Positions 15,585 through 51,567 are shown, counted from the first letter of the stretch. The stretch: DNA of 64,000 bases from Clostridium hydrogenum (GCF_021432385.1 NZ_JAEACT010000002.1:502016-566015); one strand, 5' to 3'. Numbers and translations: made by a program. Notes: generated by a model not told the origin, from the sequence alone.

Positions 15585-15877
15585 AATAATATCCTTCCTT
15601 TCATTAAATTTAATTTTCCTTGTATTTTTTATATTGTAACATAATTAGTTATATTTCCTAAAATTTATACATTATACGAGAAATATTTTAGATATTATAA
15701 ATAAGTGCAATATATAAAGTATACTAATTTACTAACACCATTTGACCTGTGTTGAAAATCATTCTTGTATATTTGAGCTACTTGCATAATTTTTTCATTC
15801 TAATGAGTGATTATTTTAATTTCATCACAATAGTAATATTTATTAAATAATTATTCTATGAAATCTGGAACCTTTTT

Positions 15878-16633
15878 CTAGAATGTAAATTTTTGTTTAT
15901 ATGATAACCCCAATATACCTTTAATTAAATTCTTTACTCTAGTACTTGATAAAATAAATTTTAGTATTCTAATAAATTGTTTTTCATCGCATATGTTCCA
16001 AAACTCTTCTCTCATTCTAGATTCCCCTTTATAATAAAATGTACCTGGTATTTTATCAAAATCTCCAAACTTGCTCCACATAGGATTATAAAAGAAACTA
16101 TATTTGAATTTTTTCACAATTCTACTTTCTTTACTTGCTACTTCAATTGATGACACTGCATGAAGTCCATCGGCATTTAATATACAATCTTCAAAAGGGT
16201 TTGCATTAAAATCTCCTACAATTATTGTATTTTTTGTACCGTATTTTTCCTCTATAGACTCTATATGATTTTTCATTCGTTCAATTATAACCCTTCTATC
16301 AGCATCCTCAGCATGCATCTTACTAGGAAGATGAACTGCCGAAATTATTTGTTTTTCAACCTCTGATATTTTTATTATTTTTATTGTATAGTATTCCTCC
16401 GAATCACCAGTTTGAAATTTATCTATACACGAAATAATTCTTATTCTCTCACATATATTAATATCAGAAATTTCGTACATTAAAATATTATGATCATCTA
16501 ATTCTTCTAGCAATTCTTTTAAATTATCATTATATTCTGCTAAAATTACTATTCCATATCTATCTTTAATAATTAATTCTTTTAAATATTCATTTACTTT
16601 TTGCTTATTAGTATTCCAGAATAAATATTTCAT
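15878..16633 (-). CDS. endonuclease/exonuclease/phosphatase (EEP) family protein
   Basis: IVGDFNANPFED motif (GDFN), upstream acidic catalytic residues, size about 250 aa. Confidence 0.5.
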   Translation of the reverse strand: MKYLFWNTNKQKVNEYLKELIIKDRYGIVILAEYNDNLKELLEELDDHNILMYEISDINICERIRIISCIDKFQTGDSEEYYTIKIIKISEVEKQIISAVHLPSKMHAEDADRRVIIERMKNHIESIEEKYGTKNTIIVGDFNANPFEDCILNADGLHAVSSIEVASKESRIVKKFKYSFFYNPMWSKFGDFDKIPGTFYYKGESRMREEFWNICDEKQFIRILKFILSSTRVKNLIKGILGLSYKQKFTF

Positions 16634-16720
16634 TACATTTCTCCTAAATAAATTAATGCTTGTTTTATTTACATTTTGAATTTAATTCCACATTTGTTGT
16701 AATGTTTTTTATTTATAGTT

Positions 16721-17086
16721 TTATTCTTTTAGCTTACTTTTTTGCATATATTGACTGAAGAACTTTAATTGTAAAAGGGATATTATAAGAGTAATTATGA
16801 TTGATAAATCACCTAATTGATCTGCTCTTTTTAAAGAATCATTATCATATCCATTATTAAAGTAAGTAAGTTTATACAGATTTATACCTCTTTTAATCAT
16901 TCTTACAATAAATAAAAATATAAAAATATAAATAATTGCTTTATAAATATAAGTACCTAACATATTGAATTTAATTTTAGATTCAAGAGAAAATAATATT
17001 AAAGCTAGTACAATAAATGCTTTAATGCTATTAGTTTCAAAAATTAAGTTTGCAATACGCTTTTTCATATGTAATATATCCTCCAT
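16721..17086 (-). CDS. small membrane protein, hypothetical
   Basis: 121 aa with two or three hydrophobic helices. Confidence 0.35.
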   Translation of the reverse strand: MEDILHMKKRIANLIFETNSIKAFIVLALILFSLESKIKFNMLGTYIYKAIIYIFIFLFIVRMIKRGINLYKLTYFNNGYDNDSLKRADQLGDLSIIITLIISLLQLKFFSQYMQKSKLKE

Positions 17087-23191: not shown

Positions 23192-23224
23192 TTAATCATC
23201 CTTTTTAAAACATATTAAACCCAC

Positions 23225-26230: not shown

Positions 26231-27220
26231 TTAATATTTTCCAGTTTTTAAATTTCTTTTTGTAATAAAGGTTCCAAGAATAAATAACGCTAAACTCAAA
26301 CCTAAAATATAAGTTAACTGCCCATAATAATTTGATAGTCCTTTTCCATCTTCAATTCCTTGTACTAAAGTTAAATATCCCTTAAAAGGAATTGCTGTAA
26401 CTATGGTATCCAAAATCTTGTTGTCATCTGTAAAGGAATAGAAGCTTCCTGCCAAAATTGACGTTATCATAATTATTGCATTTGCAAGCATGGCAGCATT
26501 GTCTACATCATCCATAATCGACGTAATAAAAAGTGCAAAAGCTGTTCCCATAATCAAAAGCAAAGCTAAAACTCCAGCAAGTTGTAAATATGAAAATCCA
26601 ATATCAATATTAAATATAACCTTGGCACCTATTACAGCTATATAAGTTGGTATAAATGCTACTAAGAAATCAAAAATGCCCTGTGAAATTAGATACTTAC
26701 TCGAGCTTACTGGTGCTATTAGTATCCTCTTAAAAGTTCCAAAATCCCTGTCCTCCGGATAAAAAAGCATAAAATTAATTTGTAATATTAAAACTATCAT
26801 TATCAAAAATCCAATTATACTAGTTCCAACGCCTCTTTTATTATACGAGTTTGAACCCACAGTAACTGAATTTGATTTTTTAAATAGACTTGCAATTTGG
26901 CTTTTTAATTTATCATCTTTAATAGTCGTTATTTTAAAATTTCCCATTCCTTTATCTTCAACTATAGCATCATACTTATTAAGCACAAGTTCAGACATCT
27001 TAGGCTTTTCCTTTACTACCTTGAGATTAACATATTTGTTACTTAGATTTAGCTTTTGATTATTTGAAACCACTGCTATATTTGCCTTTGTCTCCATTTT
27101 TGCATTAAAATACACTCCTCCAACTATCATAAGTGGAATAAATATAACAGCATTTATAATTATTATTTTCTTACCCAGCAATCTATACAAATTATTTTTT
27201 AATATATTAAATATATTCAT
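26231..27220 (-). CDS. ABC-2 type transporter permease
   Basis: 329 aa. N-terminal TM, an extracytoplasmic loop of about 130 aa, then five TM helices, the ABC-2 topology. Immediately downstream of another permease and an ATPase. Confidence 0.6.
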   Translation of the reverse strand: MNIFNILKNNLYRLLGKKIIIINAVIFIPLMIVGGVYFNAKMETKANIAVVSNNQKLNLSNKYVNLKVVKEKPKMSELVLNKYDAIVEDKGMGNFKITTIKDDKLKSQIASLFKKSNSVTVGSNSYNKRGVGTSIIGFLIMIVLILQINFMLFYPEDRDFGTFKRILIAPVSSSKYLISQGIFDFLVAFIPTYIAVIGAKVIFNIDIGFSYLQLAGVLALLLIMGTAFALFITSIMDDVDNAAMLANAIIMITSILAGSFYSFTDDNKILDTIVTAIPFKGYLTLVQGIEDGKGLSNYYGQLTYILGLSLALFILGTFITKRNLKTGKY

Positions 27221-27975
27221 TACACATACGCCTCCGGTTTAAAGGTTAATTTGCACAAAAACATTAGCATTACTGATCCAACTAATAATATTGCTACTAC
27301 CGGTACAAACATAGAAAGATCCTTATCATAAATTATTTTTAAGGCACATTCGTTTATCCATTTTAAGGGAGATATACAAGATAACTTTTGTACTGCACTT
27401 CCAAGGCTATCCACATGAAAAAATACTCCTCCAAATATACCAAACAACATAATAAAAGGGGACATAACTTTATTTGTTGCTTCTTCACTTTTAAAAATGC
27501 AGCACATAAAAGCTCCAAATGAGCACATAAACAATATCAAGACTAATACCAATATTAATACATATATAAAATCTTCCCCGCCAAGCTTTATATTAAAAAC
27601 CTTATCCTCTATTACCATTAAAATCGTATAGCATATTGCTGCAAAAGCAGAACAAGCAAATATTTTAGACAAAAATATATTTGAAGTTTTTGTTGGCGAA
27701 TAAATAAGTCTAACATTTCCCGGCTTAATTCTCTTCTCCATAAAAGTATTTGATTCAGTAAGTGCTATATTTAAAACAAAGAAAAGTGTCATCGTCACTC
27801 CGTAATAATCATACGAAGTTACCTTTGTTCCATAACTCCCCTTTGTTATAAACCCCATTATAAGTATAAAAATCAACGGAAACACCGTATTACAAAGAAA
27901 CAATGTTGGGTTCTTTACCGTATTCATAAAATCCATTTTACATATTTTAAACAAATTCAATTGTATTACCTCCAT
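27220..27975 (-). CDS. ABC-2 type transporter permease
   Basis: 251 aa, six TM helices. Confidence 0.6.
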   Translation of the reverse strand: MEVIQLNLFKICKMDFMNTVKNPTLFLCNTVFPLIFILIMGFITKGSYGTKVTSYDYYGVTMTLFFVLNIALTESNTFMEKRIKPGNVRLIYSPTKTSNIFLSKIFACSAFAAICYTILMVIEDKVFNIKLGGEDFIYVLILVLVLILFMCSFGAFMCCIFKSEEATNKVMSPFIMLFGIFGGVFFHVDSLGSAVQKLSCISPLKWINECALKIIYDKDLSMFVPVVAILLVGSVMLMFLCKLTFKPEAYV

Positions 27976-27992
27976 CTATAATTAAAGATTTT

Positions 27993-28047
27993 CCAGAATG
28001 AAATGAAGGAAAATCATCCTTCACTGTACTCTCTACTCTATTTTTTA
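27993..28047. repeat. solo TIR fragment of the MITE-like family
   Basis: GAAATGAAGGAAAATCATCCTTCACTGTACTCTCTACTCTATTTTTTA. It fills the gap between the ATPase stop (28045..28047) and the permease start. Confidence 0.7.
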
Positions 28048-29028
28048 GTCTCTCAAGCTTCTTCCTGTAAGATTTAAAAATACTCTTTCAAGCGAAGCTG
28101 AATTAGTTGTTATATTGTTTATTTTGCAGTGCTTATTCATCATAACCATAATTAGCTTATCTAAATTTTCTACTGTATTTAGGCATATTATTTCAACCTT
28201 GTTTTTCAATATATCTACTTTTTTAACGCCTTCAACCTCAAAGAAATCATCATCGCTTAATTTTTCTACATTATCAGCTTCTATGGTATATACTTTTTCG
28301 TCTTGAATATTTTCCTTTAGCTTTTCTTTTGTCCCTTCTGCAATAATAGTCCCATGGTCCATTATTATTATTCTATCTGATATTTCCTCTACTTCTTCCA
28401 TGTAATGAGTTGTATATATTATTGTTGCGCCTCTTTTTTGAAGCTTCTTTATTGAATCTAAAATGTGATTTCTTGACTGAGGATCTATTCCAACAGTAGG
28501 CTCATCCATTATTATTAACTTTGGATTATGTGCTATAGCACAAGCTATATTAAGTCTCCTTTTCATACCGCCTGAAAATGTCTTTGCCTTATCAGCTTTT
28601 CTATCATATAAACCTACAAACTCAAGAGCTTCTTTTACCTTTTCATTTAAAATCTCACCTTTAAGTCCATACAAGCTTGCAAAGAACCTAACATTTTTTT
28701 CTGCTGTTATGTCCTCGTATATGGCTAAATCCTGAGGAACTATTCCTATATTCTTTTTAACTCTAAGTGAATTTTCTTTAACATTTTGTCCATCAAATTT
28801 AATTTCTCCACCATCGGCTTTTAAGGCTGTAGATAATATATTTATAGTTGTACTTTTCCCTGCACCGTTAGGTCCTAAAAAACCTAATATTTCTCCTTGT
28901 CTTACATTAAAACTTATTTCCTTTACTGCTTTTTTGTCCTTATATCCCTTTTCTAAATTTTTAACTTCTACTATATTTTCCAATTTCATTTCTCCCTTCA
29001 ATGTTTCCTTGATGTAAAGATAAACCAT
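28045..29028 (-). CDS. ABC transporter ATP-binding protein
   Basis: Walker A GPNGAGKST, signature SGGMKRRL, Walker B IIMDEPT, H-loop. The probable true start is M14 (MKLENIVEVKNLEKGY), around 28989. Confidence 0.85.
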   Translation of the reverse strand: MVYLYIKETLKGEMKLENIVEVKNLEKGYKDKKAVKEISFNVRQGEILGFLGPNGAGKSTTINILSTALKADGGEIKFDGQNVKENSLRVKKNIGIVPQDLAIYEDITAEKNVRFFASLYGLKGEILNEKVKEALEFVGLYDRKADKAKTFSGGMKRRLNIACAIAHNPKLIIMDEPTVGIDPQSRNHILDSIKKLQKRGATIIYTTHYMEEVEEISDRIIIMDHGTIIAEGTKEKLKENIQDEKVYTIEADNVEKLSDDDFFEVEGVKKVDILKNKVEIICLNTVENLDKLIMVMMNKHCKINNITTNSASLERVFLNLTGRSLRD

Positions 29029-35201: not shown

Positions 35202-35615
35202 TTAAGATTGGTAACTTTCAATTTTAAATATAACTTGACCATATTGGACCATATCTTTATCTTTAACTAATATTTCTAATATAGTTCCATTAACTGGAGA
35301 AAGTATTTCAATAGTAACCTTTAAAAAATTAATTGTGCATAGTAATTGCTTTATCTTAACCCTTTCACCACGTTTTACATATAAATTGTTAATTTCATGA
35401 TTAAAAATATTTACTATGCCAACATATTGCGACTTAACTTCTATAATCTCACTTCTATTGTGAGTAGTGCAACAGATTTCATTTCTAGCGGTATTGAAAA
35501 CTTCTTGTGTCGCCTTTATATATAAATTATTTGTTTTTATTTCAACATATGTCATATTGGAATTTATTATTTGTTGAATTAGGTTAACAAGTTGAGATTC
35601 CTCCATATTCTTCAC
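35202..35615 (-). CDS. hypothetical protein, last gene of the RiPP/ABC operon
   Basis: 137 aa. C-terminal region (VSPVNGTILEILVKDKDMVQYGQVIFKIE) weakly resembles a biotin/lipoyl-like hybrid barrel. Confidence 0.4.
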   Translation of the reverse strand: MKNMEESQLVNLIQQIINSNMTYVEIKTNNLYIKATQEVFNTARNEICCTTHNRSEIIEVKSQYVGIVNIFNHEINNLYVKRGERVKIKQLLCTINFLKVTIEILSPVNGTILEILVKDKDMVQYGQVIFKIESYQS

Positions 35616-35659: not shown

Positions 35660-36331
35660 TTACTTACTACTGCATATCCTACCATCTTTTATTTTAATAA
35701 CATCATCACATATTGAAGTAGATTCTAAGTTATGTGTAACCATTAATATAGTGGTCTTAAAATCATCACAAAGTTTTCTTAATAATTTTAAAATCATATC
35801 AGCATTTTGGGAATCTAAATTACCCGTTGGTTCATCGGCAAAAACAATCTTAGGGTTATTAACTAATGACCTTGCTATTGACACACGCTGTTGTTCTCCT
35901 CCTGATAAATATCCTGCTTTTTTATTTCTCTTATCATACAATCCTACATCTTTCATTAATTTATCAATAATATCTTTCTTTTTACCAAGTTCCCTATTCG
36001 CTATTATTATTGGTAATCTAATATTCTCTTCAATAGTCATCGTAGGTATAATATTATAAGATTGAAATACAAAACCTATATTATTACATCTAAACTCTGA
36101 CATTTTACTATCATTTAATTTCATTATATCAGTATTATCGATATATACTTCTCCTTTATCAGCAGTTAATAGCCCACTCAATGTATACAAAAGAGTACTT
36201 TTACCAGATCCCGAATTTCCTGTTATTGCAACAAATTTGCCATTTTCAACATTAAGTGATATATCCTGTAATACTGGTACATTTGTATTATTATTATCGT
36301 ACGACTTACAAACATTTACTGCTCTAATCAT
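35660..36331 (-). CDS. ABC transporter ATP-binding protein (MacB/FtsE-like)
   Basis: Walker A GNSGSGKST, signature LSGGEQQRV, Walker B VFADEPT, H-loop THN. 223 aa. Confidence 0.85.
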   Translation of the reverse strand: MIRAVNVCKSYDNNNTNVPVLQDISLNVENGKFVAITGNSGSGKSTLLYTLSGLLTADKGEVYIDNTDIMKLNDSKMSEFRCNNIGFVFQSYNIIPTMTIEENIRLPIIIANRELGKKKDIIDKLMKDVGLYDKRNKKAGYLSGGEQQRVSIARSLVNNPKIVFADEPTGNLDSQNADMILKLLRKLCDDFKTTILMVTHNLESTSICDDVIKIKDGRICSSK

Positions 36332-36341: not shown

Positions 36342-38858
36342 CTATTCATCCTTTATATTTTTAACAACATCGCATTTAACTGATTTTCTAACGGAAAAAA
36401 ACATGAACGTCAGTGATACACTAAGAACTAATATACCAATTATACAAGACTGTACTACTGAAAAACTACTTGGCACATTTACGCCACCTCCATTAGATGC
36501 TTTATTAAAAATCCCCACCAAATATTCAGTTGATATACTACTTCCACAAATGCCAACTACAATCACCACAAGAAATAATAACGCTATCTCTAAAAACGCT
36601 ATTCTAGTAGTGCTAATCTTGCTTAGACCAATAGACATTAGTAACGCTAATTGCTTTTTATTTTCACTTATTGTCATTACACATGTATTTACCAATAATG
36701 TCATTAAAGCAAGTTCTATGGTAAAGAAAAGAACTTCAATTGGTAGCATTCCTTCCATCACATTTTCCTGCCACATATATTTCATACCATTACGGTCATT
36801 ATAATCTACTTCCTTGCTTTTTTGCTTTCTTTCTTCTTTAATCTCTTCTTTGCTTTTTTGTGTAGTATCACCAAACAACGCTTGATCAATTTTATCTTCT
36901 GTGTCAAATCCATTTTTCTCATTTATATATTTAATTGGTATTCTACATGTTTCAGGCTTAAATTGATCCTTATCGCCAAAAGAAAATACAACCCTTCCTG
37001 AATAATCCATAGTATTAATTATATCAGCAATCCTAACATTTTTCTTTTTTTCTCCTACAATTACTTCCAACTCAGAATTTATTTTCTTGTGTAAATTATC
37101 AGCTAATTCCTGTGAAATTACAACATCGTTATTGTTATCTTTAATATACTGTAATCCATTTTCAAATAAATTTTGATTATACATTTCCTTTATGACCGAT
37201 TCACTAGTTACACAATAGTTAAATTGGTCTCCTAAATTACTTTTTGCTTGTCCTTCATATATGCTACCAATTGGTTCTATATTTCCAATCTTTTTAATGA
37301 TCTTTTGCACTTTACTTTCTTCGGAATCTGTATATTTATAATTAATCTCAATATCATACCTTAATTGTTTATCAACTTGATCCCTTGCCCAATTGTGGTA
37401 TGACTTAATTGTATTTGATAAGGAAAGCTGTATAAGAATTATTAATAAAAAAGAACATGCCAGCCCCTTGTTTTTACTAAAATTATTACTCATATTATGA
37501 GATACAAGAAGTGTAGTTCTATTTACCTTTAATTTCACTAATTTTCCGATGATCACTACTATATACGGAACCAAGCTAATAATTCCAACAATAAATAGTG
37601 CAAATAAAATTCCACATGATAACAATGTTAAGTTATTACTATTACAAACTAAATGGATAGTAATTGGGATAGCTATAGCTATGATACCCAGAGTAATTTT
37701 GATAGGATTATTTTTACTGCTATCTATTACTTCATCTTTAGCTTTAATAAGCTCATATGGGGTTTTCTTATTAAACCTTGTTGTTACAACTAAAACTGAT
37801 ACTATTGGCAGTACACCACCAACAACAATAGATATTAAAATGAATTCAAAACTCGGCACAAAACTCAAAATTGGTGTAGCTGTTAGAGTACAAACTCCAC
37901 ACCCTAATGCTATTCCTAAAGTAATTCCAAGAACTATACCAATACATGAATAAAACAAATTCTCAAGCACTATACAATATACCATCTCTCTATACTTAAG
38001 TCCTATAGTTCTTAAAACTGCCCAAAACTTAATACGTTCATTAATTATAACCGTATACGTATTTATAATTAAACTACACCCTAGAAATACAATAATAGCA
38101 ACTAAAAAAAGTAAACTATTTTGTAAAAATCCCATATCTTTTTCAACTTTAACATACTTTTGATAATCGTCAAAAACCTTTACCTCATCTCCATAGCTAT
38201 TATTTATCTTTTGTATTAACAATTTTGCATTGTTTGTATTGTGATTTAGATCTAGAAATATTCCACTTAAAGTATTACTACCATTTAAAATACCACTAGA
38301 AATAAATATTGTATCATTATCAGAGGTACTTGCATAATTTTCAGTTACTGCAGCAATCCTACATTCAGTTTTAATCCCATCAACCTCAACCTCTACATAA
38401 TCATTTAATTTAGCCCCCAGTTTTTTCATTAACTGCTTATTAACCACAATATCATTAGGTAATTTACTTATACTTCCTTGTACTATATTCATTTTTTCCA
38501 TGTAATTATAATCATTAAATTCTGTTTCATAAATATCTATACTTACTGGATTATCATTAAATGTTATATTACCTCCTTGTATAATATTAAAATTGACTTT
38601 CTTCTTTACATCACTATTGCTTATAATATTATCAATTTTTTTTCTATTAACCTCAGAATTAAATATCAGCCTTACATCTGAACTTCCACTTTTATTGACT
38701 TCTCTTATCTTCAGTCCGTTCATATTATTTGAGAACAATATTTCAGACATAATTATTATTGCCACTATTAGCATTACAGCAAAGGAAATAGGTATATTCC
38801 TCCTACGCTCTTTTGAATTGCTCACCCTATCTTTTATTAATATAATTTCTTTTTCCAT
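36342..38858 (-). CDS. ABC transporter permease, FtsX family (two FtsX modules)
   Basis: 838 aa, N-terminal TM, large extracytoplasmic domains, two 4-TM FtsX-like bundles. Adjacent to the ATPase. Confidence 0.75.
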   Translation of the reverse strand: MEKEIILIKDRVSNSKERRRNIPISFAVMLIVAIIIMSEILFSNNMNGLKIREVNKSGSSDVRLIFNSEVNRKKIDNIISNSDVKKKVNFNIIQGGNITFNDNPVSIDIYETEFNDYNYMEKMNIVQGSISKLPNDIVVNKQLMKKLGAKLNDYVEVEVDGIKTECRIAAVTENYASTSDNDTIFISSGILNGSNTLSGIFLDLNHNTNNAKLLIQKINNSYGDEVKVFDDYQKYVKVEKDMGFLQNSLLFLVAIIVFLGCSLIINTYTVIINERIKFWAVLRTIGLKYREMVYCIVLENLFYSCIGIVLGITLGIALGCGVCTLTATPILSFVPSFEFILISIVVGGVLPIVSVLVVTTRFNKKTPYELIKAKDEVIDSSKNNPIKITLGIIAIAIPITIHLVCNSNNLTLLSCGILFALFIVGIISLVPYIVVIIGKLVKLKVNRTTLLVSHNMSNNFSKNKGLACSFLLIILIQLSLSNTIKSYHNWARDQVDKQLRYDIEINYKYTDSEESKVQKIIKKIGNIEPIGSIYEGQAKSNLGDQFNYCVTSESVIKEMYNQNLFENGLQYIKDNNNDVVISQELADNLHKKINSELEVIVGEKKKNVRIADIINTMDYSGRVVFSFGDKDQFKPETCRIPIKYINEKNGFDTEDKIDQALFGDTTQKSKEEIKEERKQKSKEVDYNDRNGMKYMWQENVMEGMLPIEVLFFTIELALMTLLVNTCVMTISENKKQLALLMSIGLSKISTTRIAFLEIALLFLVVIVVGICGSSISTEYLVGIFNKASNGGGVNVPSSFSVVQSCIIGILVLSVSLTFMFFSVRKSVKCDVVKNIKDE

Positions 38859-38869: not shown

Positions 38870-40066
38870 TTATGCTTGTTGTTTATTTTTAACACCCTTT
38901 AATTTCTTAAGTATATCTACTATGCCTATACAAGGCAGCACAGTTACTATTGCAACAAAAATTTTTGTAAAAATTGAGTGTGCATCATACCAAGCTAAAA
39001 ATATCCATCTAGCCATAAATAAAAACATATAAGCTATAGCTATTAAACTAGCTATAAAATATATAAAATATACTCTTCTCTCCTTTTTGCTTATCTTATA
39101 AGCTTTATTCTTAAAGAACATATATTTAATTATATATGTTCTTACGTTGAATTTATTTAAAAGAATGGAAAATAAAAAATACCCATCAGTTAATGAAAAT
39201 GGACTTAAATTAGTTACAATAGCAATAAAATTACTTATAGCTACTATCTTACACATATCTCTAAAATTAGAGTCAATCCCTCCAAGCGATGCAATCCCTA
39301 AACTTACAAATGCAATAGCTAAATTTGTAACTAAACCAGCCATAACTATCTGTATTTTCTCAACATTTTTAAGTGTATTAATTCCCTTTACTTTAATATA
39401 AACAATAGGCATACATCCACTATATAAATTAAATGAAACTTTGTAAACGTCCTTTCCTAATGACAATGCAACAATAATATGTGATAATTCATGGGCTATT
39501 AATGAAAATCCTGACATAATTGTTAGATAAATAAATCCAGCTGAAGCAGAATTATTATACTTATACAATTGTTTTGTATTTCCCAAATCTAAAACATTGA
39601 AATTATTTATAGCAACTATAATACTAAAAAAAATCAATATACTATATAAAGCTATAAATAATTTCTTTATAGCTTTAGCTATTTCCTTTATTTTTTTGCT
39701 TTGAGGTTTCAGTATAACTTTAACTATCTCCTTTGACATAATATCAATTTCATTACTTATAATTCCACGCTGTTCATTTTCAATAAACCCATTATTCACT
39801 AATATCTTATAAAAGGCGCCAATATCTACTTTGCATTTTAATTCATCTTCAACTTTTGATTGCACATTGCTTAATGTACTACTTCCATCAAATAACTTTA
39901 TTATTCTTTGTACATATTTCAATTTATTTTTTGGTATCTTTATATATTTCTCCTTGTCCTCGCAAGCTAATACATAATACTCTTGTTTTCCAAATATGGA
40001 CTTATCCTCGATTATCTTATAGTCACTTACAAATTTAGGTTTAGCCTCTAAACTACTAGCCTCCAT
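38870..40066 (-). CDS. M50-family (site-2-protease-like) membrane zinc metalloprotease with N-terminal cytoplasmic domain
   Basis: HExxH within a TM helix (LIAHELSHIIVAL) and a downstream LDG-type motif (NLSPFSLTDGYFLF). Multiple TM helices. Its ATG overlaps the stop of the upstream rSAM gene (TAATG). Confidence 0.7.
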   Translation of the reverse strand: MEASSLEAKPKFVSDYKIIEDKSIFGKQEYYVLACEDKEKYIKIPKNKLKYVQRIIKLFDGSSTLSNVQSKVEDELKCKVDIGAFYKILVNNGFIENEQRGIISNEIDIMSKEIVKVILKPQSKKIKEIAKAIKKLFIALYSILIFFSIIVAINNFNVLDLGNTKQLYKYNNSASAGFIYLTIMSGFSLIAHELSHIIVALSLGKDVYKVSFNLYSGCMPIVYIKVKGINTLKNVEKIQIVMAGLVTNLAIAFVSLGIASLGGIDSNFRDMCKIVAISNFIAIVTNLSPFSLTDGYFLFSILLNKFNVRTYIIKYMFFKNKAYKISKKERRVYFIYFIASLIAIAYMFLFMARWIFLAWYDAHSIFTKIFVAIVTVLPCIGIVDILKKLKGVKNKQQA

Positions 40067-41472
40067 TAATTATCAACTCTCTCTAAACTTTTTTTATAAT
40101 ACTCGTAACTATTGAAATTTGCCTCTGAAAAATTAATTGATAACTTTTTTACATTCTTACTAAAGTTTTTATACTCCTCTTTATTTGTAACAAGTTTAAC
40201 AAGGTTTAATATTACCCTTTCAGTTATAACCCTTTGAACAGCACATCTTGATTCTATTACACTTTTTTTATTTCCATTAAACAAAAGTGAACTTCCTTCA
40301 CACCATAATGTACATACTCTATTGCAGAAACATTTTTTACATTTTTCTATCTCCGAACGATCTACCTTTTTAAATTCGTTCATTTTATCTTTTATATTTG
40401 ATTCATTATCAAAAATTGATGATATTTTGTCTTTTTTAGCTTCATAATACATTTGGCATGGATAAAACACTCCATCTATAGTATAAAATAATGACTCCTT
40501 ACCTGCTGTACAGTATTTAGCTTTTCTTTTTGTTACTATATTTATAATTATATTCAAAATTGTAATCGGAACTGTCATACATTTTTCTTCATCCTGTAAC
40601 ATTTCAAAACAATAATCAACCATATCATAATAAAATGTTCTTATATTTCTTTCAAATTCTGTAGGTAACTCATTCACATTATTGTAATCAGCTATATATG
40701 TAGATACATTCTGAGCCCCTAGTTCATAAAAATTATTAAAATATTCATTTATACTTCCGGCATTATATGTTCTTAAAAATGCCTCTCCCACCGTAGACTC
40801 TACCTCAAAAGTATATCCTCTATCTCTTAGCAATTTTAAGTTATTTAAAACTGTATCATAAGATCCTCTACCATCCTTAAATACTCTCATAGAATCATGA
40901 CATTCCTTATTTGCATCCATGCTAATAGTCACAAGAACACTATGTTCAATTATAAACTCAACAATTTCATTTGTAAGTAATGTACCATTTGTAATTACAC
41001 TAAATAGTGGCTGAGTAATGTTCTTTTGTCTACAAACATCTTCTGCATAACATATAAATTTTTCTATCTCACTAAATCCAATTAATGGTTCTCCGCCAAA
41101 AAAATTAATTACCTTTACACCATCAGGATAATTATTTAGAATAAATTCAAAAATCTTCTTATAATCATCAAATACCATTACTTTGTTGCCTTTTCTATCA
41201 TAAGTACCAGCATTTGCAAAACAGTACTTACAAGCCAAATTACAAGTTTCTGATGAACATATTATAAGATGTTTTAACCAAGTTCTATCAATAACATTAT
41301 TGGGAGTAACCATATCTTTTATTTTATCATTCTTAAAAACTTCTTTAATTTTTAAATTTATTTCATCTGGTTTACTACTATATAAAGCGATACTTGACGT
41401 TTCTGCATTATATAATATTTTTGTATTTTCATCCCTATCAATTACGTATACATTATCATACATCTTGTTCAT
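40066..41472 (-). CDS. radical SAM / SPASM-domain peptide-modifying enzyme
   Basis: CxxxCxxC (ETCNLACKYCFANAG), a GGEP motif (FFGGEPLIG), and a C-terminal Cys-rich SPASM-like region (KYCTAGKESLFYTIDGVFYPCQ...CKKCFCNRVCTLWCEGSS...RCAV). About 70 aa of N-terminal extension precede the rSAM core. Confidence 0.85.
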   Translation of the reverse strand: MNKMYDNVYVIDRDENTKILYNAETSSIALYSSKPDEINLKIKEVFKNDKIKDMVTPNNVIDRTWLKHLIICSSETCNLACKYCFANAGTYDRKGNKVMVFDDYKKIFEFILNNYPDGVKVINFFGGEPLIGFSEIEKFICYAEDVCRQKNITQPLFSVITNGTLLTNEIVEFIIEHSVLVTISMDANKECHDSMRVFKDGRGSYDTVLNNLKLLRDRGYTFEVESTVGEAFLRTYNAGSINEYFNNFYELGAQNVSTYIADYNNVNELPTEFERNIRTFYYDMVDYCFEMLQDEEKCMTVPITILNIIINIVTKRKAKYCTAGKESLFYTIDGVFYPCQMYYEAKKDKISSIFDNESNIKDKMNEFKKVDRSEIEKCKKCFCNRVCTLWCEGSSLLFNGNKKSVIESRCAVQRVITERVILNLVKLVTNKEEYKNFSKNVKKLSINFSEANFNSYEYYKKSLERVDN

Positions 41473-41574: not shown

Positions 41575-41709
41575 CTAGCAGCAGTGATAGCCACCAAAAG
41601 AAAATCCACTTACAACTTCTTCAATCTCACTAAGATCATCAAATGAGACCATTTCTAAATTTTCTTCATCTAATATTTTGTTTTCATTTTCTCTTTCATT
41701 CTTTATCAT
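41575..41709 (-). CDS. RiPP precursor peptide paralog 1 (44 aa)
   Basis: GGAGGG RBS. Translation: MIKNERENENKILDEENLEMVSFDDLSEIEEVVSGFSFGGYHCC*. Not in the ORF track. Confidence 0.7.
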   Translation of the reverse strand: MIKNERENENKILDEENLEMVSFDDLSEIEEVVSGFSFGGYHCC

Positions 41710-41849: not shown

Positions 41850-41984
41850 TTAGCAACAGTGATAGCCACCAAAAGAAAATCCACTTACAACCTCTTCAAT
41901 CTCACTAAGATCATCAAATGTAACCATTTCTAAATTTTCTTCATTTAATATTTTGTTTTCATTTTTCTCTTCATTTTTTGTCAT
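41850..41984 (-). CDS. RiPP precursor peptide paralog 2 (44 aa)
   Basis: RBS GGAGCG. Translation: MTKNEEKNENKILNEENLEMVTFDDLSEIEEVVSGFSFGGYHCC*. Confidence 0.7.
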   Translation of the reverse strand: MTKNEEKNENKILNEENLEMVTFDDLSEIEEVVSGFSFGGYHCC

Positions 41985-42033: not shown

Positions 42034-42168
42034 TTAGCAACAATATTGAGTTCCTGCAGAAAATCCACTTACAACCTCTTCCATTTCACTGAGATCATCA
42101 AATGTAACCATTTCTAAATTTTCTTCACTTAATACCTTGTTTTCATTTTCTTTTTCATTTTTCATCAT
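42034..42168 (-). CDS. RiPP precursor peptide paralog 3 (44 aa)
   Basis: RBS GGGGTG. Translation: MMKNEKENENKVLSEENLEMVTFDDLSEMEEVVSGFSAGTQYCC*. Confidence 0.7.
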   Translation of the reverse strand: MMKNEKENENKVLSEENLEMVTFDDLSEMEEVVSGFSAGTQYCC

Positions 42169-42252: not shown

Positions 42253-42387
42253 CTAACAACAATATTGACTTCCTGCAGAAAATCCGCTTACAACTTCTTC
42301 CATTTCGCTAAGATCATCAAATGTAACCATTTCTAAATTTTCTTCACTTAATACCTTGTTTTCATTTTCTTCATTATTCATCATCAT
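42253..42387 (-). CDS. RiPP precursor peptide paralog 4 (44 aa)
   Basis: RBS GGGGGGG. Translation: MMMNNEENENKVLSEENLEMVTFDDLSEMEEVVSGFSAGSQYCC*. Confidence 0.7.
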   Translation of the reverse strand: MMMNNEENENKVLSEENLEMVTFDDLSEMEEVVSGFSAGSQYCC

Positions 42388-42466: not shown

Positions 42467-43579
42467 TTAATTTGTGACTATGGAATTAACTTTTTTCATA
42501 ATTTCAGCCTCTATTTTGGAAACTTCCTCTAGTCTAATAATCAAATCTTTTAGAAATGAAATTTTGCATCCAATGTAATTTTTATTATTATATAGTTTTC
42601 TAATTATATATCTCCATTTGATACTTAAATCCATCATTTTTTGTGCTTCAATAACTAACTCATCACTTTTAATATCCTTTCCAAACATTATTAATGCCTT
42701 TGCTATCTCTTCTCTTTCAAAAGTGCTTGTCCCTATTATTAATCCTTTTCTAAGGATTTTTGATTGTAATGTAAAAATTTTACTTGTTATATCCTCCTTA
42801 TTGGTATATCTTTTAATCATATCTATAAATTCATTAAGATATTCTATTATATACTTATATGCATTTTTACCACTTGTGAAATAAACATTATCACAATATT
42901 GTGTTAACTTGCTTTCCTTTGAATAGTTATCAGAAAATATAGCTATTTGCCTTAATATCAGTGTTCTTAATTTATCCTTATCCAATGACATTTTACTGTT
43001 TTTTTCAATTATAAATGCTCGTCCACTTGGCGACATTGGATATATTTTACTTTGCCTACTTCTTTTAAAATCCTCATAATCTACACTTATATATTCCTCA
43101 GTACTTGCAAGTGAACTCAATATTAGCTTTTCTTCTAAAACCCCTATTACTATTCCAGAAGATATATTGCTAATTCTTGCACTATTTTTTTTATATCTAT
43201 CTAACATCTCACTAGTATCGAAATAATAAACTACAGTTTGTTTATTAGAAACATATTCTTTAATTTTCTCAAGTGAATCTGTATTTTCCTTATCTAATTC
43301 AAAAACATTAAAACCTAATGATTTCAAAACATATATTTCAACCTCCTCATCACCAGGAAATATCTGGCACAAGTTTAGTTTGTTATAATTCTTTATTAAA
43401 AAGAAATTTATAATATTATTTAGACTTAATAACAATATATATTCAAAGCTTACTTCTTCATTTTTTAACCTTAGTAAATCGTAGATACATTTAATTCTAC
43501 AATGCCTATTTCTTTCATGTATGCCTTTATACTTATAAAGTAATGAATCTTCCACTATACTCCCTCCAATTTTTTGCAC
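42467..43579 (-). CDS. hypothetical protein (370 aa) between the KS/ACP genes and the precursor array, candidate transferase
   Basis: Intact ORF with RBS. No motif I can assign with confidence. Its position suggests a role linking the ACP-bound product and the peptide. Confidence 0.5.
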   Translation of the reverse strand: MQKIGGSIVEDSLLYKYKGIHERNRHCRIKCIYDLLRLKNEEVSFEYILLLSLNNIINFFLIKNYNKLNLCQIFPGDEEVEIYVLKSLGFNVFELDKENTDSLEKIKEYVSNKQTVVYYFDTSEMLDRYKKNSARISNISSGIVIGVLEEKLILSSLASTEEYISVDYEDFKRSRQSKIYPMSPSGRAFIIEKNSKMSLDKDKLRTLILRQIAIFSDNYSKESKLTQYCDNVYFTSGKNAYKYIIEYLNEFIDMIKRYTNKEDITSKIFTLQSKILRKGLIIGTSTFEREEIAKALIMFGKDIKSDELVIEAQKMMDLSIKWRYIIRKLYNNKNYIGCKISFLKDLIIRLEEVSKIEAEIMKKVNSIVTN

Positions 43580-43602
43580 GAAAGTATTTTTTTATTAAAA
43601 AT

Positions 43603-45954
43603 CTATAATTTGCATTTTTTTAATATAACCGCACTATATGAGTGAGGATATGAGTAACTAGTAATCAAAATATTATTTATATCTGTTTTTAAACCTCTAC
43701 AATAGTAAATACTATTTTCATACAACTTATTTTCCCCACGCAATACCAATGCAGCATGTGCTATTTGCATTGAACTTGTTGCCGCTCGTCCTTCTCCTAA
43801 AATATCCTTAATTGAAATGATAGAAATATCGTTAAAAATATTCTTATAAATTTTTAGCTCCATCTCATCTATATTCTTATGCCCATTTGCAAGCCCCACA
43901 ATAGCCCCTATATCACAAGGATTTAATTTACACCGTTGTAATGCCATACTTATTGCGTACTTTAATCCTTCGCCATCATAATTAATTTTTGAAGAATCAT
44001 TATACATGCCATATCCCAAAACTTCAGCGTACTTCCTTCCATTTCTCTTATTGACGCTTTCTTCTGATTCTAAAACTATACTCCCAGCACCTTCAGTGAT
44101 TTCAAAACCATTATTTCTAAAGCTATCTGTTACTGAATTTTTATCATAGTTTGCCATATCATATGCTTTTTTTATGGTATCATTTATTTCATCTACCCCA
44201 GAAGCTATTATGCATTGGCTTCTATTTAGCTTTATTAAGTCATAGGAATAACAGAAACTATGAATTCCACTTTCTATACCATTTACTAATGTCGCTGTAT
44301 ATCCTTTTGCTTTTGTTATCATTGATAAATACCCTGCTGCGGTATTATATGATATACTTGGAAATAAAATTGCACTTGTGCCTTTAGTTCCCTTTTGTAT
44401 AATTTGCTTTATATAACTTTCAATTGTATTTATGGGTCCATCGCTTGTACCGACTATTATACCTACATCTTCTAATTGATTAAAATCAATTTTCGCATCA
44501 CTTATTGCATTTATCCCTGAAACAGTTAACATCTTTGAAAATCTATCCATTCTTCTTAAATACTTACTCTTAATACAATCAAATTTTTTTAAATTCTGCT
44601 CAAAATTTTCCATTTCATTTATATGCTTATCACCGTTTCTTTTTGTAAAAAAATCTATGTAGCTATCCTTACCTATTCCAAGGCAATTTACCATACCAAT
44701 TCCAGTTATAAATACTCTCGGTTGATTTAATTCCTCCGCTTTATATGAATTTACTTTCCTAGAAAATATAACAGACGAATTAACTCCACCAAAAGCTAAC
44801 GAATTAGACATTATATTATTTGTATTATACTTAATAAACTTATTAGGAATAAAATCCATATTATAATTTTGATTATTTTTATCAAAATTCATAGTTGGCG
44901 GTAATACATTATTCTCCATAGATTTTATTGATATTATCGCTTCTAATATGCCTGCTGCACCAAGGCAATGCCCTATCATCGATTTAGTTGAGCTTATCTT
45001 TATGGAATTTAATTTTTTTGCAAACAGTTTTTCATAACATCTTTTTTCAGTTGTGTCATTTAAATACGTTCCAGTTCCATGTGCATTTACATAATCTATA
45101 TCACTAGCATTTAATTTTGACATGTTTAAAGCAGACTCCATTGCTTTTAATTGAGTTTCTCCTGATGGTTCAGGTGATGTTACATGATATGCATCGCTTG
45201 TAGTTCCATATCCTAATACTTCACAATACATCTTTGCATTTCTTTTATTTGCATGCTCCAAAGATTCTACTATAATTATTCCTGCCCCTTCTCCTAATGT
45301 TAACCCATCACTTTTTGAAAATGGTGAACATTCATTACTAGATAATGCTTTTAAAGCATGGAATCCTGAAAACTGAGTATTACTAAGTGCATCAGCTCCA
45401 CCTACAATCATTACATCGACATTTCCTCTTTTAATCAAATCACATCCATATGCAATACTTATATTGGAAGATGCACACGCATCTGCAATACTTTCTACAG
45501 GACCACATATTTCAAAATATTCCGATATTTTTTCAGCAATATTTCTTATGCTGATTTTATCAATATCACTTTTAAAAATTTCCTTGCCCTTATCAATTTT
45601 TCTTAGGACGGTTTCACGTGAGTTCATTCCGCCCATGCAACTTCCTATAGCTATTCCTATTCTGCTTTTATCCAATTCACATATGTTTAACTGTGAATCC
45701 TCAATTGCCTCTATACATGCTTTTAAGGCCATCATTGTTGTATTATTTAATTCTTCTCTGATTTTAGAATGAAATTCGAAATTATCAATTTCAGCTCCTA
45801 CCATTGTATAACATCCATCAGTATTAACCTTGCTTAATTTTTTAAAACCAACTTTTCCATTTACTGTATTTAAAAAAGTATCATTTACATTTTCTCCATT
45901 ACAGCATGTACACCCCATACCAGTTACAACACATCTAATCATTTCCATCACCAC
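43603..45954 (-). CDS. tandem beta-ketoacyl synthase protein (KS + chain-length-factor-like second KS domain)
   Basis: Domain 1 carries the KS triad: active-site Cys in IADACASSNISIAYG, and His in VNAHGTGTYLND and SMIGHCLGAAG. Domain 2 (from about aa 410) is KS-like but lacks the active-site Cys (TSDGPINT), as in CLF/KS-beta. Confidence 0.8.
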   Translation of the reverse strand: MVMEMIRCVVTGMGCTCCNGENVNDTFLNTVNGKVGFKKLSKVNTDGCYTMVGAEIDNFEFHSKIREELNNTTMMALKACIEAIEDSQLNICELDKSRIGIAIGSCMGGMNSRETVLRKIDKGKEIFKSDIDKISIRNIAEKISEYFEICGPVESIADACASSNISIAYGCDLIKRGNVDVMIVGGADALSNTQFSGFHALKALSSNECSPFSKSDGLTLGEGAGIIIVESLEHANKRNAKMYCEVLGYGTTSDAYHVTSPEPSGETQLKAMESALNMSKLNASDIDYVNAHGTGTYLNDTTEKRCYEKLFAKKLNSIKISSTKSMIGHCLGAAGILEAIISIKSMENNVLPPTMNFDKNNQNYNMDFIPNKFIKYNTNNIMSNSLAFGGVNSSVIFSRKVNSYKAEELNQPRVFITGIGMVNCLGIGKDSYIDFFTKRNGDKHINEMENFEQNLKKFDCIKSKYLRRMDRFSKMLTVSGINAISDAKIDFNQLEDVGIIVGTSDGPINTIESYIKQIIQKGTKGTSAILFPSISYNTAAGYLSMITKAKGYTATLVNGIESGIHSFCYSYDLIKLNRSQCIIASGVDEINDTIKKAYDMANYDKNSVTDSFRNNGFEITEGAGSIVLESEESVNKRNGRKYAEVLGYGMYNDSSKINYDGEGLKYAISMALQRCKLNPCDIGAIVGLANGHKNIDEMELKIYKNIFNDISIISIKDILGEGRAATSSMQIAHAALVLRGENKLYENSIYYCRGLKTDINNILITSYSYPHSYSAVILKKCKL

Positions 45955-45959
45955 TCAGC

Positions 45960-46220
45960 TTAATTGATTTTAGTAATAATTAAATTAGCCAAGTCTCGTA
46001 TACATTTAATAGATTTCTCATCATCACTTGTAATTGTAATTCCAAACATATCTTCAGCAGTTGATGTTATTTCAATTATGTCTAGCGAATCTAATTCTAA
46101 TCCTCCATCAAAAAATTCTTGATCATATGTTAATCTTTCGGCATCAATATCTAGTTTTAACTTTTCAATTATTTCTTTCTTTAGCTTTGCACAAATATCC
46201 TCTTGACTATATTTCATCAT
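45960..46220 (-). CDS. acyl carrier protein
   Basis: 86 aa, acidic. Phosphopantetheine attachment motif GGLELDSLDIIEI, where the Ser of DSL is the attachment site. Confidence 0.75.
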   Translation of the reverse strand: MMKYSQEDICAKLKKEIIEKLKLDIDAERLTYDQEFFDGGLELDSLDIIEITSTAEDMFGITITSDDEKSIKCIRDLANLIITKIN

Positions 46221-46594
46221 TTATCCCCACTTTCATTTTTATTATATTCCCACAATAATATTTAACTTTTGTTAAAATACTAATTTACGTTTAGAATCGT
46301 ACAATTAGCATATTTTTTGATTTTAACAACCAATATGTAATATATTAAAATTATTATTTTACAATTCCTTATTTGTATTATACTTCCAATTAACTTTATA
46401 TTCAATACTTTTTTGTATTATTTTGCCAAATATATTTTTCTAACTATCAAGTTTCTGTAAATATAAAGCAAAAACACCTTAATTCATACTTTTTAAGTAT
46501 AAATTAAGGTGTTTTTATTAAATTTAGGTATAACACAAAAAGTGTAAATACATTTTTAATTATATATTTTAAATTATTTGCTACAAATGTTGAG

Positions 46595-50361: not shown

Positions 50362-51222
50362 TTATAGAATGTTATTTATTTTTTTAGCTAATTCGTCTGA
50401 TATTTCAACTAAAGGCAATCTAACTTCTGGCGATTTTATTAAACCAAGCTTACTTAAGCAGTACTTAATTGGAGCTGGATTAGGTTCTTCAAACAACAAT
50501 GGTATTATAGGCGCTACTTTCTTCCAAATTTCAAATGCACCTTCGTGGTCGTTTTGCTTAGCTTTATTAAATATTTCTACATACTTCTCTGCATTGAGAT
50601 GTGCTGAAGCCATTATTCCACCATCTCCACCAAGCATTAATGTGCTGTAGAAAAATGCATCTTCTCCTGTTAATATTGAAAAATCCTTTGGTCTATTAAG
50701 TAAAAGGTCTGTTGTTTGATTAAAATCTCCGCAAGCATCCTTTATACCAACTATATTTTTGAGTTCTGCAAGCTTTCTTACAGTATCATTTTCAATATTT
50801 CTGCCAGTTCTATAAGGTATGTTATAAAGGACTATATCCAAAGCTGTAGACTCAGATATCCTCTTAAAGTGTTCATATATACCCTTCTGGCTAGGTCTAT
50901 TGTAATATGGACATACCGATAATATTCCTTGAATTTTATATTTTTCAAACATTTTAATACTCTTTGCCATTTTTTCTGTATTGTTTCCCCCAAAGCCAAT
51001 ATACAATGGCACTTTATTTTCAGTATATTCTACTGTTTTTTCAAGTATACTTTCATATTCATACTCTGATAATGTTGGGGTTTCTCCTGTAGTTGCAAGC
51101 GGCATAAGTCCTGAAACACCCTTACTTGTATAGTTCTGTATCAATTTTTTATAGGAAGCAAAATCTACTTCCCCATTTTCAAAAGGAGTAATAATTGGTA
51201 ATAAAACGCCTTCAATTTTCAT
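50362..51222 (-). CDS. dapA: 4-hydroxy-tetrahydrodipicolinate synthase family protein (DapA/NAL superfamily)
   Basis: DapA-family motifs (LPIITPF, GLMPLATTGE, Schiff-base Lys context GIKDA). It is preceded by a lysine riboswitch, which supports dapA rather than another aldolase. Confidence 0.65.
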   Translation of the reverse strand: MKIEGVLLPIITPFENGEVDFASYKKLIQNYTSKGVSGLMPLATTGETPTLSEYEYESILEKTVEYTENKVPLYIGFGGNNTEKMAKSIKMFEKYKIQGILSVCPYYNRPSQKGIYEHFKRISESTALDIVLYNIPYRTGRNIENDTVRKLAELKNIVGIKDACGDFNQTTDLLLNRPKDFSILTGEDAFFYSTLMLGGDGGIMASAHLNAEKYVEIFNKAKQNDHEGAFEIWKKVAPIIPLLFEEPNPAPIKYCLSKLGLIKSPEVRLPLVEISDELAKKINNIL

Positions 51223-51259: not shown

Positions 51260-51500
51260 CACATGAAAAGTAACAGCAAAGGAACACCCTTGCTGTTACT
51301 ATTATATTCAATATTAACAATACGCGTGTACCTTGTAGCTCTCCACTATATAAATATTTCAAGTGACAGTCCTGCATATATTCTATACAAAACCAGAAGG
51401 CACCCTTGCCAGAATGCTTTCTTCGGCTGTAATTCCTTTTCTTGTCCATCACTGCCCGCTGGCTAAAGACAAGTACTTATAATTGCAGCACCTCTACCCT
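51260..51500 (-). ncRNA. lysine riboswitch (L-box) with terminator-type expression platform, in the dapA leader
   Basis: Read on the minus strand: AGAGGTGCTGC ... CCGAAGAAAGCATTCTGGCAAGGGTGCC ... GACTGTCAC ... TGGAGAGCTACAAGG. These match the conserved L-box blocks AGAGGTGC, GAAAG...GGG, CTGTCA and TGGAGxGCTA. They are followed by the hairpin AACAGCAAGGGTGTTCCTTTGCTGTT plus a T-rich tail (51272..51297). Local GC is high for this genome. Confidence 0.7.
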
Positions 51501-51567
51501 AGGTAAAATTCATTTAATTTTACAGTTAGTTTATCACATACCTGTATAAATTTCAAGCCATGCAAAA

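Follow-up and report, generated by a model that had tools for sequence, protein, structure and literature searches.

A carrier protein, a fused ketosynthase and a BtrH-like protein in a ribosomal peptide operon of Clostridium hydrogenum: a candidate lipidation module

Why should an acyl carrier protein (ACP) and a fused ketosynthase (KS) be encoded at the head of an operon for ribosomally synthesized peptides that undergo post-translational modification (RiPPs), and what might connect the two? The question is raised by a 64,000-nt stretch of DNA from Clostridium hydrogenum (GCF_021432385.1, NZ_JAEACT010000002.1:502016-566015; GC ~28%), all of which is hereafter called the window. Here, genes for an ACP, a fused protein of two KS-like halves (KS-KS') and a BtrH-like protein open a single minus-strand operon that continues with precursor peptide genes. 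We consider it probable that the BtrH-like protein transfers an acyl group from ACP to peptide and that a lipidated thioether peptide results, the three genes together being the lipidation module of a hybrid lipid-RiPP cluster. The genes on which this answer turns are the following.

45960..46220, minus strand: ACP, 86 aa (Pfam PP-binding, E 1e-9)
43603..45954, minus strand: fused KS-KS' protein, 783 aa (two Pfam ketoacyl-synt N+C units)
44755..45954, minus strand: N-terminal KS domain, catalytically complete (Pfam; Cys160, His292, His329)
43603..44718, minus strand: C-terminal KS-like domain, no catalytic residues (Ile560, Leu688, Glu721)
42467..43579, minus strand: BtrH-like open reading frame (ORF), 370 aa (modelled fold; likely start 43555, 362 aa)
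42253..42387, minus strand: precursor peptide 1, 44 aa, C-terminal end FDDLSEMEEVVSGFSAGSQYCC (strong Shine-Dalgarno site)
42034..42168, minus strand: precursor peptide 2, 44 aa, C-terminal end EEVVSGFSAGTQYCC (strong Shine-Dalgarno site)
41850..41984, minus strand: precursor peptide 3, 44 aa, C-terminal end EEVVSGFSFGGYHCC (strong Shine-Dalgarno site)
41575..41709, minus strand: precursor peptide 4, 44 aa, C-terminal end EEVVSGFSFGGYHCC (strong Shine-Dalgarno site)

The ACP, KS-KS' and BtrH-like genes are separated by gaps of 5-23 nt, and the BtrH-like gene is placed directly between the ACP/KS genes and the precursor genes. A first-pass annotation of this DNA had described the three leading ORFs, and their coordinates are confirmed, on the minus strand. 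It had also supposed that the third of them, to which it could assign no function, sits where a link between ACP and peptide would be expected, and in several genomes the gene is indeed found between carrier-protein and precursor genes. The peptide cluster that it saw around them is real, given the four 44-aa ORFs, each with its own strong ribosome-binding site. Two details needed correction. The fusion does adjoin the ACP gene, but the distance from ACP stop to KS-KS' start is 5 nt (GTG) or 11 nt (ATG, the NCBI choice) rather than 6 nt. The 370-aa ORF exists, but translation most likely begins at a GTG (43555) that stands 6 nt past GGAGGG; the protein then has 362 aa, in agreement with the NCBI record. 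Residues of the BtrH-like protein are numbered here on the 370-aa form, Cys27 being Cys19 when counted from the likely start.

Fold and genomic company of the BtrH-like protein

A word-indexed homology search with the 370-aa protein returned only the protein itself, and the family alignment as query returned two proteins; with an exhaustive phmmer search, 50 relatives of full length were recovered, of which the best shares 36% identity. Pfam domains among 42 aligned relatives were BtrH_N (PF14399) in 19, DUF4872 (PF16169) in 15 and Peptidase_C39_2 in 3, and the homologue from C. fungisolvens scored above the gathering cut-offs of both BtrH_N and DUF4872. Sequence and profile searches of the PDB with the window protein gave nothing useful beyond a weak match to the C39-like peptidase 3erv. 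An AlphaFold model built from a 41-sequence alignment reached a pLDDT of 94.3 and a pTM of 0.92 (single-sequence model, pLDDT 38.9), and consists of an N-terminal papain/C39-like alpha/beta domain followed by a C-terminal helical domain. All 19 Foldseek matches with E<1e-3 were CcbD, AziU2/U3 or CtaG entries. The predicted fold of the protein is that of BtrH, CcbD and CtaG, which bears out the earlier suggestion that the partner might have a BtrH-like acyltransferase fold.

CtaG (closthioamide), CcbD/LmbD (lincosamides), BtrH (butirosin) and AsbE (petrobactin) are papain-like, carrier-protein-dependent amide ligases or transacylases. CtaG uses a Cys11-His128-Asp144 triad to take the acyl group from a carrier protein onto the Cys and then to pass it to an amine, and BtrH and AsbE have the CtaG fold and accept carrier-protein-bound donors (PMC12865890). 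CcbD, with a Cys-His-Glu triad, carries out ping-pong amide ligation, likewise from a carrier-protein-bound donor (PMC12945683). The window resembles these systems in that a carrier protein is encoded alongside, and the nucleophile of CcbD, Cys19, has its counterpart in a Cys19 of the window protein (likely-start count). This residue, Cys27 in our numbering, stands at the start of the first helix, is conserved in 39/42 aligned relatives and falls opposite the catalytic Cys of 3erv (CRiqslrdlL vs CEVTSLAMML). Sequence identity to the CtaG/CcbD/BtrH/AsbE group is only 10-14%. The presumed acceptor in the window is a ribosomal peptide, whereas the characterised ligases all belong to ribosome-independent pathways, and the CtaG/BtrH/AsbE/MllDE fold has been presented as a ligase class for ribosome-independent assembly (PMC12865890).

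BtrH-like relatives were inspected in ten other loci, nine of which are distinct, L006 and L007 having one gene set. Abbreviations in the list below are KR, ketoreductase; DH, dehydratase; rSAM, radical S-adenosylmethionine enzyme; ACC, acetyl-CoA carboxylase; ABC, ATP-binding cassette; and A-PCP-C, adenylation-peptidyl carrier protein-condensation.

C. fungisolvens (L001): ACC genes, rSAM, four precursors, a 434-aa protein of unknown family between precursors and BtrH_N gene, BtrH_N/DUF4872 protein, beta-lactamase-fold protein, ACP, fused KS, KR, ApeI-like DH, FtsX, ABC
P. tritici and P. piscarius (L008, L012): ACP, fused KS, KR, DH, rSAM, precursors, HExxH protein, BtrH_N
L092: BtrH-like, two precursors, rSAM, HExxH protein, FtsX, ABC, beta-lactamase-fold protein, ACP, fused KS
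L004 and L006/7 (metagenomic): ACP, thioesterase, KS-like, KR, DH, stand-alone KS; A-PCP-C protein, BtrH-like and precursor in direct succession; then close rSAM and HExxH orthologues
L005: BtrH-like, HExxH protein, precursor, M23 peptidases, ABC genes
L090 and L091 (metagenomic): contigs too short for judging a carrier protein

A small ORF with a homologous leader follows the BtrH-like gene or lies near it in all ten loci, and seven of them (six if only the nine distinct loci are counted) have a carrier-protein gene. The chain-building genes vary, from fused KS plus ACP (L001, L008, L012, L092) to stand-alone KS plus A-PCP-C protein (L004, L006/7). KR and DH accompany the fused KS and ACP where the locus reaches far enough, as do the KR and ApeI-like DH of sister clusters L001 and L008. 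The lipid-building module thus appears to be interchangeable, being a fused KS, a stand-alone KS with an A-PCP-C protein resembling non-ribosomal peptide synthetases, or none. Such swapping around a constant pair of BtrH-like protein and precursor fits a role as the bridge from a carrier-bound donor to the peptide.

Two further observations concern the metagenomic loci. A second, distant BtrH-like paralogue lies among the chain-building genes of L006 (3392..4450) and L004 (65..1105), recognised by the family hidden Markov model (E 1e-12 to 1e-17) with no Pfam match; the pathway may therefore have two transfer steps. L006 also encodes, at 13923..16829, another Cys-rich precursor (CFHVCINCIDCFCIKISCISF) unrelated to the first, along with a separate rSAM enzyme for it and a membrane protein of 396 aa, two peptide systems adjoining each other.

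The carrier protein and the fused ketosynthase

The ACP has its phosphopantetheine attachment site at Ser45, in LDSLD, and scores under every NCBIfam housekeeping-ACP cut-off. In the fused protein, the motifs DACASS, AHGTGT and GHCLGAAG all fall in the first KS unit, and the triad Cys160/His292/His329 is invariant in 121/121 aligned fused proteins (the window protein and 120 relatives). The N- and C-terminal halves are 28% identical in a pairwise alignment. The Cys-equivalent of the second half is Ile560, in VNG-I-ESG, and the other triad equivalents are Leu688 and Glu721. Across the family, the Cys-equivalent differs between members (A 34, I 24, N 13, S 12, V 9, W 7, others), the Leu688 position is Phe in 106 members and the Glu721 position is Glu in 110. 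Since all three catalytic residues are gone, the second half would be a dead KS that serves as a built-in dimer partner.

The first-pass annotation was right to see a complete Cys-His-His triad in the first KS and to call the second Cys-less, but it took TSDGP for the place of the missing Cys. The alignment of the halves puts this conserved loop opposite the GSCMGG loop of the first half, and TSDGP is therefore not the active-site position. Its comparison of the second half with a chain length factor (CLF), or KS-beta, holds for an inactive KS partner, but the Gln of type II polyketide synthase (PKS) CLFs is absent. Aromatic type II PKS CLFs are recognised by a conserved Gln, which is used for decarboxylative priming. 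Judged from its residues, the window domain would merit the label CLF only loosely. A CLF of the strict type II PKS kind was rejected on this ground, and also because the protein is a single 783-aa chain and the operon has no cyclase-like genes.

The placement of the protein relative to FabF was made by bit-score comparison, which stood in for a KS tree. The N halves of fused relatives matched the N-domain with 318-406 bits, the best solved FabF (B. subtilis) with 270 bits. The C-domain scored 177-274 bits against the C halves of the relatives and at most 103 bits against any solved chain, the best being 9s5h_C, the Cys-less chain of a KS pair. The same 9s5h pair is also among the best solved matches of the first KS domain. 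The whole 783-aa protein barely passes the NCBIfam fabF cut-off, with 496 bits summed over both domains against 493.75 bits. By these scores, the fusion belongs to a FabF-derived but distinct clade of KS-KS' proteins of ~780-830 aa. Housekeeping FabF was rejected as an identity, the protein having two domains instead of a single domain of ~410 aa, no fab neighbours, and fused relatives that score higher than solved FabF. The earlier opinion that the KS pair is no ordinary FabF is upheld by these scores, and also by members of the clade at the cylI position and in sister RiPP clusters with KR and ApeI-like DH.

An active KS paired with a Cys-less homologue, as in the window, is known from type II PKS KS-alpha/CLF and polyene KS/CLF pairs (actinorhodin 1tqy, ishigamide Iga11/12 6kxd, cispentacin AmcF/G and the uncharacterised 9s5h_B/C). 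The second domain has the motifs VG(T/S)xxG(P/S)I and NG-x-x-S in common with 9s5h_C, and the AmcF model matches the window fusion with 267 bits. These pairs consist of two chains, whereas the window halves form one, and the aromatic CLFs have the conserved Gln where the window family has a variable residue. No cyclases or aromatases are encoded in the window operon. The CylI-type fused KS of the Bacillus cereus K8 plasmid pBCM301 resembles the window protein along its whole length (34.5% identity, 100% query coverage), both being KS-KS' proteins of ~800 aa. Its gene directly follows that of an aminomethyltransferase, which takes the cylF position, and malonyl-CoA:ACP transacylase (MCAT), FabG, ACP and FabZ are encoded in the same operon. 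The arrangement matches that of the cyl/granadaene genes, the fusion standing in the place of cylI (PMC4315905, PMC6985545); the CylI-type likeness was set by this synteny in pBCM301, not from the S. agalactiae CylI sequence itself. A dedicated ACP and an ABC exporter are found in cyl and window systems alike. The cyl operons have their own KR, DH, MCAT and a large GNAT/CylE acyltransferase loading ornithine, whereas the window has a BtrH-like protein and ribosomal precursors.

The operon on pBCM301, a conjugative plasmid (L093, 1465..17887), is a complete cyl/granadaene-like operon encoding ABC proteins, thioesterase, MCAT, FabG, ACP, FabZ, a 1038-aa GNAT protein, DUF6365, aminomethyltransferase, fused KS and rfbACBD; its KS was found on many B. 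cereus-group plasmids. Fused-KS relatives of ~780-830 aa number thousands in Firmicutes metagenomes, and when genomes were scanned, one for each species, the motifs of the second domain turned up at 549 loci. Among the best 80 of these 549 loci, one was RiPP-linked (Paenibacillus piscarius). A metagenome-assembled genome (MAG) of the Bacillota has the fusion beside KR, DH, three amine-oxidase/desaturase-like genes and a methyltransferase. In Lachnospira eligens ATCC 27750 (L094, 627-kb replicon, 8251..17039) and a Lachnospiraceae MAG (L009, 8092..16434), the fusion is accompanied by ACP, KR, FabZ, MCAT, an ACC subunit, a flavodoxin/FMN-reductase-like gene and PlsX or PlsC, an operon that may serve a general fatty acid or lipid pathway and not secondary metabolism. 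Because these contexts differ (lipid, polyene, RiPP), the fusion alone is no marker of secondary metabolism, and its linkage to peptides is a minority use.

Precursors, maturation genes and the rest of the window

The remaining features of the operon and its upstream border are these.

46470..46516, minus strand: terminator-like hairpin of the upstream NUDIX gene (20-bp stem, then T run)
46405..46377, minus strand: promoter-like TTGAAT-17-TATAAT (sequence match)
40066..41472, minus strand: rSAM/SPASM peptide maturase (PapB and SCIFF models closest, below cut-offs)
38870..40066, minus strand: HExxH (HELSH) polytopic membrane metalloprotease (NCBIfam daptide_HExxH and YydH/LiaK, below cut-off)
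36342..38858, minus strand: MacB/FtsX-type ABC permease, 838 aa (Pfam)
35660..36331, minus strand: ABC transporter ATPase (Pfam)
35202..35615, minus strand: biotinyl/lipoyl-domain protein, 137 aa, at the operon's 3' end

The predicted hairpin of the NUDIX gene marks the likely 5' boundary of the operon. The TTGAAT-17-TATAAT match is only a suggestion as its promoter, since in DNA as AT-rich as this the frequency of promoter-like sites does not exceed chance.

The precursors have the leader LEMVTFDDLSEMEEVVSG and the core FSAGSQYCC, plus three close variants. The leader ends in a small-residue pair (S/N-G), in ...EEVVSG, and the cores are 9-11 residues long with an invariant adjacent Cys-Cys. 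Homologous leaders in the other loci read ...[ILV]TF[DE][DE]L.E[MI]E.V..., and the cores of the closer group follow the pattern ...VV[SN]G-x-S-x-G-x(2-3)-C-C; examples of cores are GGSAGPILCCNS, ASFGIGICCIYN, SGGTISCCNG... and STSGIAICCSG... The best models for the rSAM/SPASM protein, PapB and SCIFF, describe thioether-forming enzymes and are matched below cut-off (162 vs 340 bits); a strong orthologue occurs in L006 (3e-111). The HExxH protein matches NCBIfam daptide_HExxH (E 1.7e-14) and YydH/LiaK (E 1.9e-9), again below cut-off (54 vs 300 bits), has orthologues in L005 and L006 (4e-70) and is the probable leader protease. Ranthipeptide/sactipeptide (PapB, SCIFF) and daptide/epipeptide systems are thus those whose models come closest to the two window enzymes, and they too have Cys-containing cores; the window scores lie far under the cut-offs of the PapB/SCIFF and daptide/YydH families, and the window cores are short with adjacent Cys-Cys.

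The biotinyl/lipoyl protein weakly resembles (E 1e-6) the biotin carboxyl carrier protein (BCCP) that opens the C. fungisolvens sister cluster, with FLKV where the AMKM biotinylation motif is usual. It may be a degenerate BCCP remnant, and its membership in the system is uncertain.

Elsewhere in the window, a second RiPP-like locus lies at 200..3990 (minus strand) with 5687..10924. It encodes an rSAM/SPASM maturase (200..1477; best models Clo7bot, TIGR04463 and CefB, all below cut-off), a 54-aa candidate precursor ending in EEEAGLNFCVVISTK (1565..1729) and an M16-like peptidase (2602..3990), and near it are a WalK/YycF-like two-component pair, an FtsX permease and an ABC ATPase ORF (7799..8317, 172 aa, possibly split). 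A lysine riboswitch at 51328..51504 (minus strand; Rfam RF00168, 108 bits) is upstream of a dapA-like gene (50362..51222). Two adjoining LuxR/MalT-type regulators of ~860 aa, each with GerE C-terminal domain and TPR_MalT, are encoded at 20597..25810 (minus strand), beside an ABC-2 transporter set (26231..29028).

Competing explanations and a proposed pathway

Several observations weigh against the BtrH-like protein as an ACP-to-peptide acyltransferase. The position of the catalytic His is taken by Ser140 in the window protein, and in the clade by Ser in 34/42, Thr in 6/42 and His in 1/42 (the clade profile 'nlSlvlvvgyd' aligned to 'NEHCVVLIGYD' of 3erv). The spacing from Cys to Ser is 113 residues, matching that of Cys19-His131 in CcbD, and the window protein has no His residues other than His21 and His26. 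At the third position of the triad, placed by sequence, stands Ser155, with Asn 13, Asp 8 and Ser 6 among the 42. CtaG His128 and CcbD His131 are thus replaced by Ser and the acidic third residue appears to be missing as well, and for this reason the published Cys-His-Asp/Glu mechanism does not apply unchanged; if the protein is a transacylase, it would have to use a modified active site. The window protein itself has no Pfam match even at E 10 and no NCBIfam match. The BtrH fold is by itself no proof of acyl transfer, since AziU3/U2 have the same fold and form an aziridine (PMC12865890). In L005, the 10 kb to each side of the BtrH-like gene contain neither a carrier-protein nor a KS gene. What looks like a general-lipid setting of the fusion in the Lachnospiraceae is a further caveat. 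Searches of the 64-kb window with sister-cluster proteins found no gene for KR, DH, MCAT, biotin carboxylase, carboxyltransferase, thioesterase or a beta-lactamase-fold protein, the sole BCCP-like match being a weak one at 35205..35615, and no phosphopantetheinyl transferase is encoded in the window. Given these absences, the window genes do not define the acyl product, and the module, a minimal ACP plus KS-KS', must borrow malonyl loading, phosphopantetheinylation and any reduction from primary metabolism.

The substitutions at the active site lend themselves to a different explanation, that the protein catalyses a step other than acyl transfer (cyclisation, elimination or cross-linking, cf. 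AziU3/U2) on the peptide or the ACP-bound chain, or is a non-catalytic adaptor between ACP and precursor, the acyl group being attached otherwise or never. The loss of the His to Ser or Thr in 40/42 relatives, the near-invariant Arg277, Arg289, Glu291 and Glu357 of the helical domain, which suggest a reshaped active site, and the carrier-free L005 all fit this explanation. The explanation is opposed, however, by the near-invariant nucleophilic Cys, which does not suit a dead scaffold, and by the carrier proteins of seven of the ten other loci. In addition, a Pfam scan of nine proteins of or adjoining the operon found no GNAT/Acetyltransf or other acyltransferase domain, which leaves the co-transcribed ACP and KS with no alternative acyltransferase among the scanned proteins. 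We regard such a non-acylating role as unlikely. Far less likely is a C39-like cysteine protease that cuts a double-glycine-like leader after ...EEVVSG while ACP and KS make a separate lipid. The D/N-C motif, the GYD strand and the small-residue pair at the leader end recall C39 systems, but the His that is essential in C39 proteases is Ser or Thr in nearly the whole clade, whole-length similarity to CcbD/CtaG is far above that to C39 domains, the operon has a separate HExxH protease of the daptide/YydH kind, and the leaders of sister clusters lack the terminal Gly.

Least likely of all, in our estimation, is that ACP and fused KS belong to lipid synthesis and merely adjoin a RiPP cluster, for instance an accessory fatty acid synthase for membrane lipids. 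The Lachnospiraceae operons, the single RiPP-linked case among the best 80 of the genome loci and a fabF score just above cut-off can be cited for it. The narrow gaps in one transcription unit that starts past a terminator are difficult to reconcile with such a chance neighbourhood, as is the recurrence of ACP, fused KS, BtrH-like protein, precursor, rSAM enzyme and HExxH protein, with the genes rearranged, in four further loci (C. fungisolvens, P. tritici, P. piscarius and L092). The 64-kb window also lacks plsX/plsC, fabD, fabG and fabZ.

Taking the BtrH-like protein as an acyltransferase, a pathway can be proposed; it builds on which genes are present and how the operon is arranged, on the state of the catalytic residues, on the fold and on recurrence across genomes, from which we infer every chemical step, the acceptor atom and the step order. 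The ACP would be phosphopantetheinylated and malonylated by host enzymes, as genes for both activities are absent from the window. Decarboxylative condensations would be the task of the N-terminal KS domain (Cys160/His292/His329), and the dead C-terminal domain would shape the acyl pocket as dimer partner, as in KS/CLF pairs and CylI-type polyene synthases. Any keto-reduction or dehydration would have to be supplied by primary fatty acid synthesis, failing which the chain would be short and beta-keto. In the sister clusters, KR and DH without an enoyl reductase suggest an unsaturated or polyene chain, by analogy with cyl. Cys27 of the BtrH-like protein would take the acyl group from acyl-S-ACP and hand it to a nucleophile of the peptide core, most likely the amine freed by leader removal after ...EEVVSG, by analogy with BtrH, CcbD, CtaG and N-terminally acylated RiPPs. 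The rSAM enzyme would cross-link the invariant C-terminal Cys-Cys, the HExxH protease would cut off the leader and the ABC system would export the lipopeptide; acyl transfer may precede or follow cross-linking, leader removal or export.

The lipolanthines, goadvionins, selidamides, lipoavitides and aphotorhaptins all have GNAT-superfamily acyltransferases, and several lipidated RiPP classes receive the acyl group on the N-terminus after leader removal, according to a 2026 paper (PMC13647313). These systems and the window share a leader-bearing ribosomal precursor and a dedicated or borrowed acyl or polyketide supply. They use GNAT enzymes, whereas the window has a BtrH/CtaG-fold protein in that place; the window peptide is not a lanthipeptide and belongs to an rSAM/SPASM and HExxH system with a ...S-x-G-x(2-3)-C-C core. 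In full-text literature, with subscription journals outside the coverage, we found no description of such a system in connection with BtrH and RiPPs, with DUF4872, or with RiPPs that involve a CLF and ACP. From its genes, the locus is a predicted hybrid lipid-RiPP cluster apart from the listed classes, with a different, catalytically unusual transferase family and a CylI-type KS. More tentatively, and at somewhat less than even confidence, we propose a new class of lipidated RiPP, in which a His-less transacylase of BtrH/CtaG fold (Cys plus Ser/Thr, helical-domain Arg/Glu) moves a chain, which a CylI-type fused KS has assembled on a dedicated ACP, onto a short rSAM-cross-linked peptide with this core.

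If this is true, the C. hydrogenum protein would offer the first ribosomal substrate for this ligase family and the first non-GNAT enzyme of RiPP lipidation, as well as a catalytic variant of the papain-like ligase mechanism; how a Cys functions with Ser in the place of His is the mechanistic question that it raises. The cluster is small (~11 kb) and comes from a cultured species, and with the apparent swapping of modules around a constant core, the hypothesis is easily testable by heterologous expression. A clade of BtrH-fold proteins tied to precursors in Clostridium, Paenibacillus and metagenomic Firmicutes would join the fields of ribosome-independent ligases and RiPPs, and would provide a new carrier-protein-fed enzyme for genetically encoded lipopeptides.

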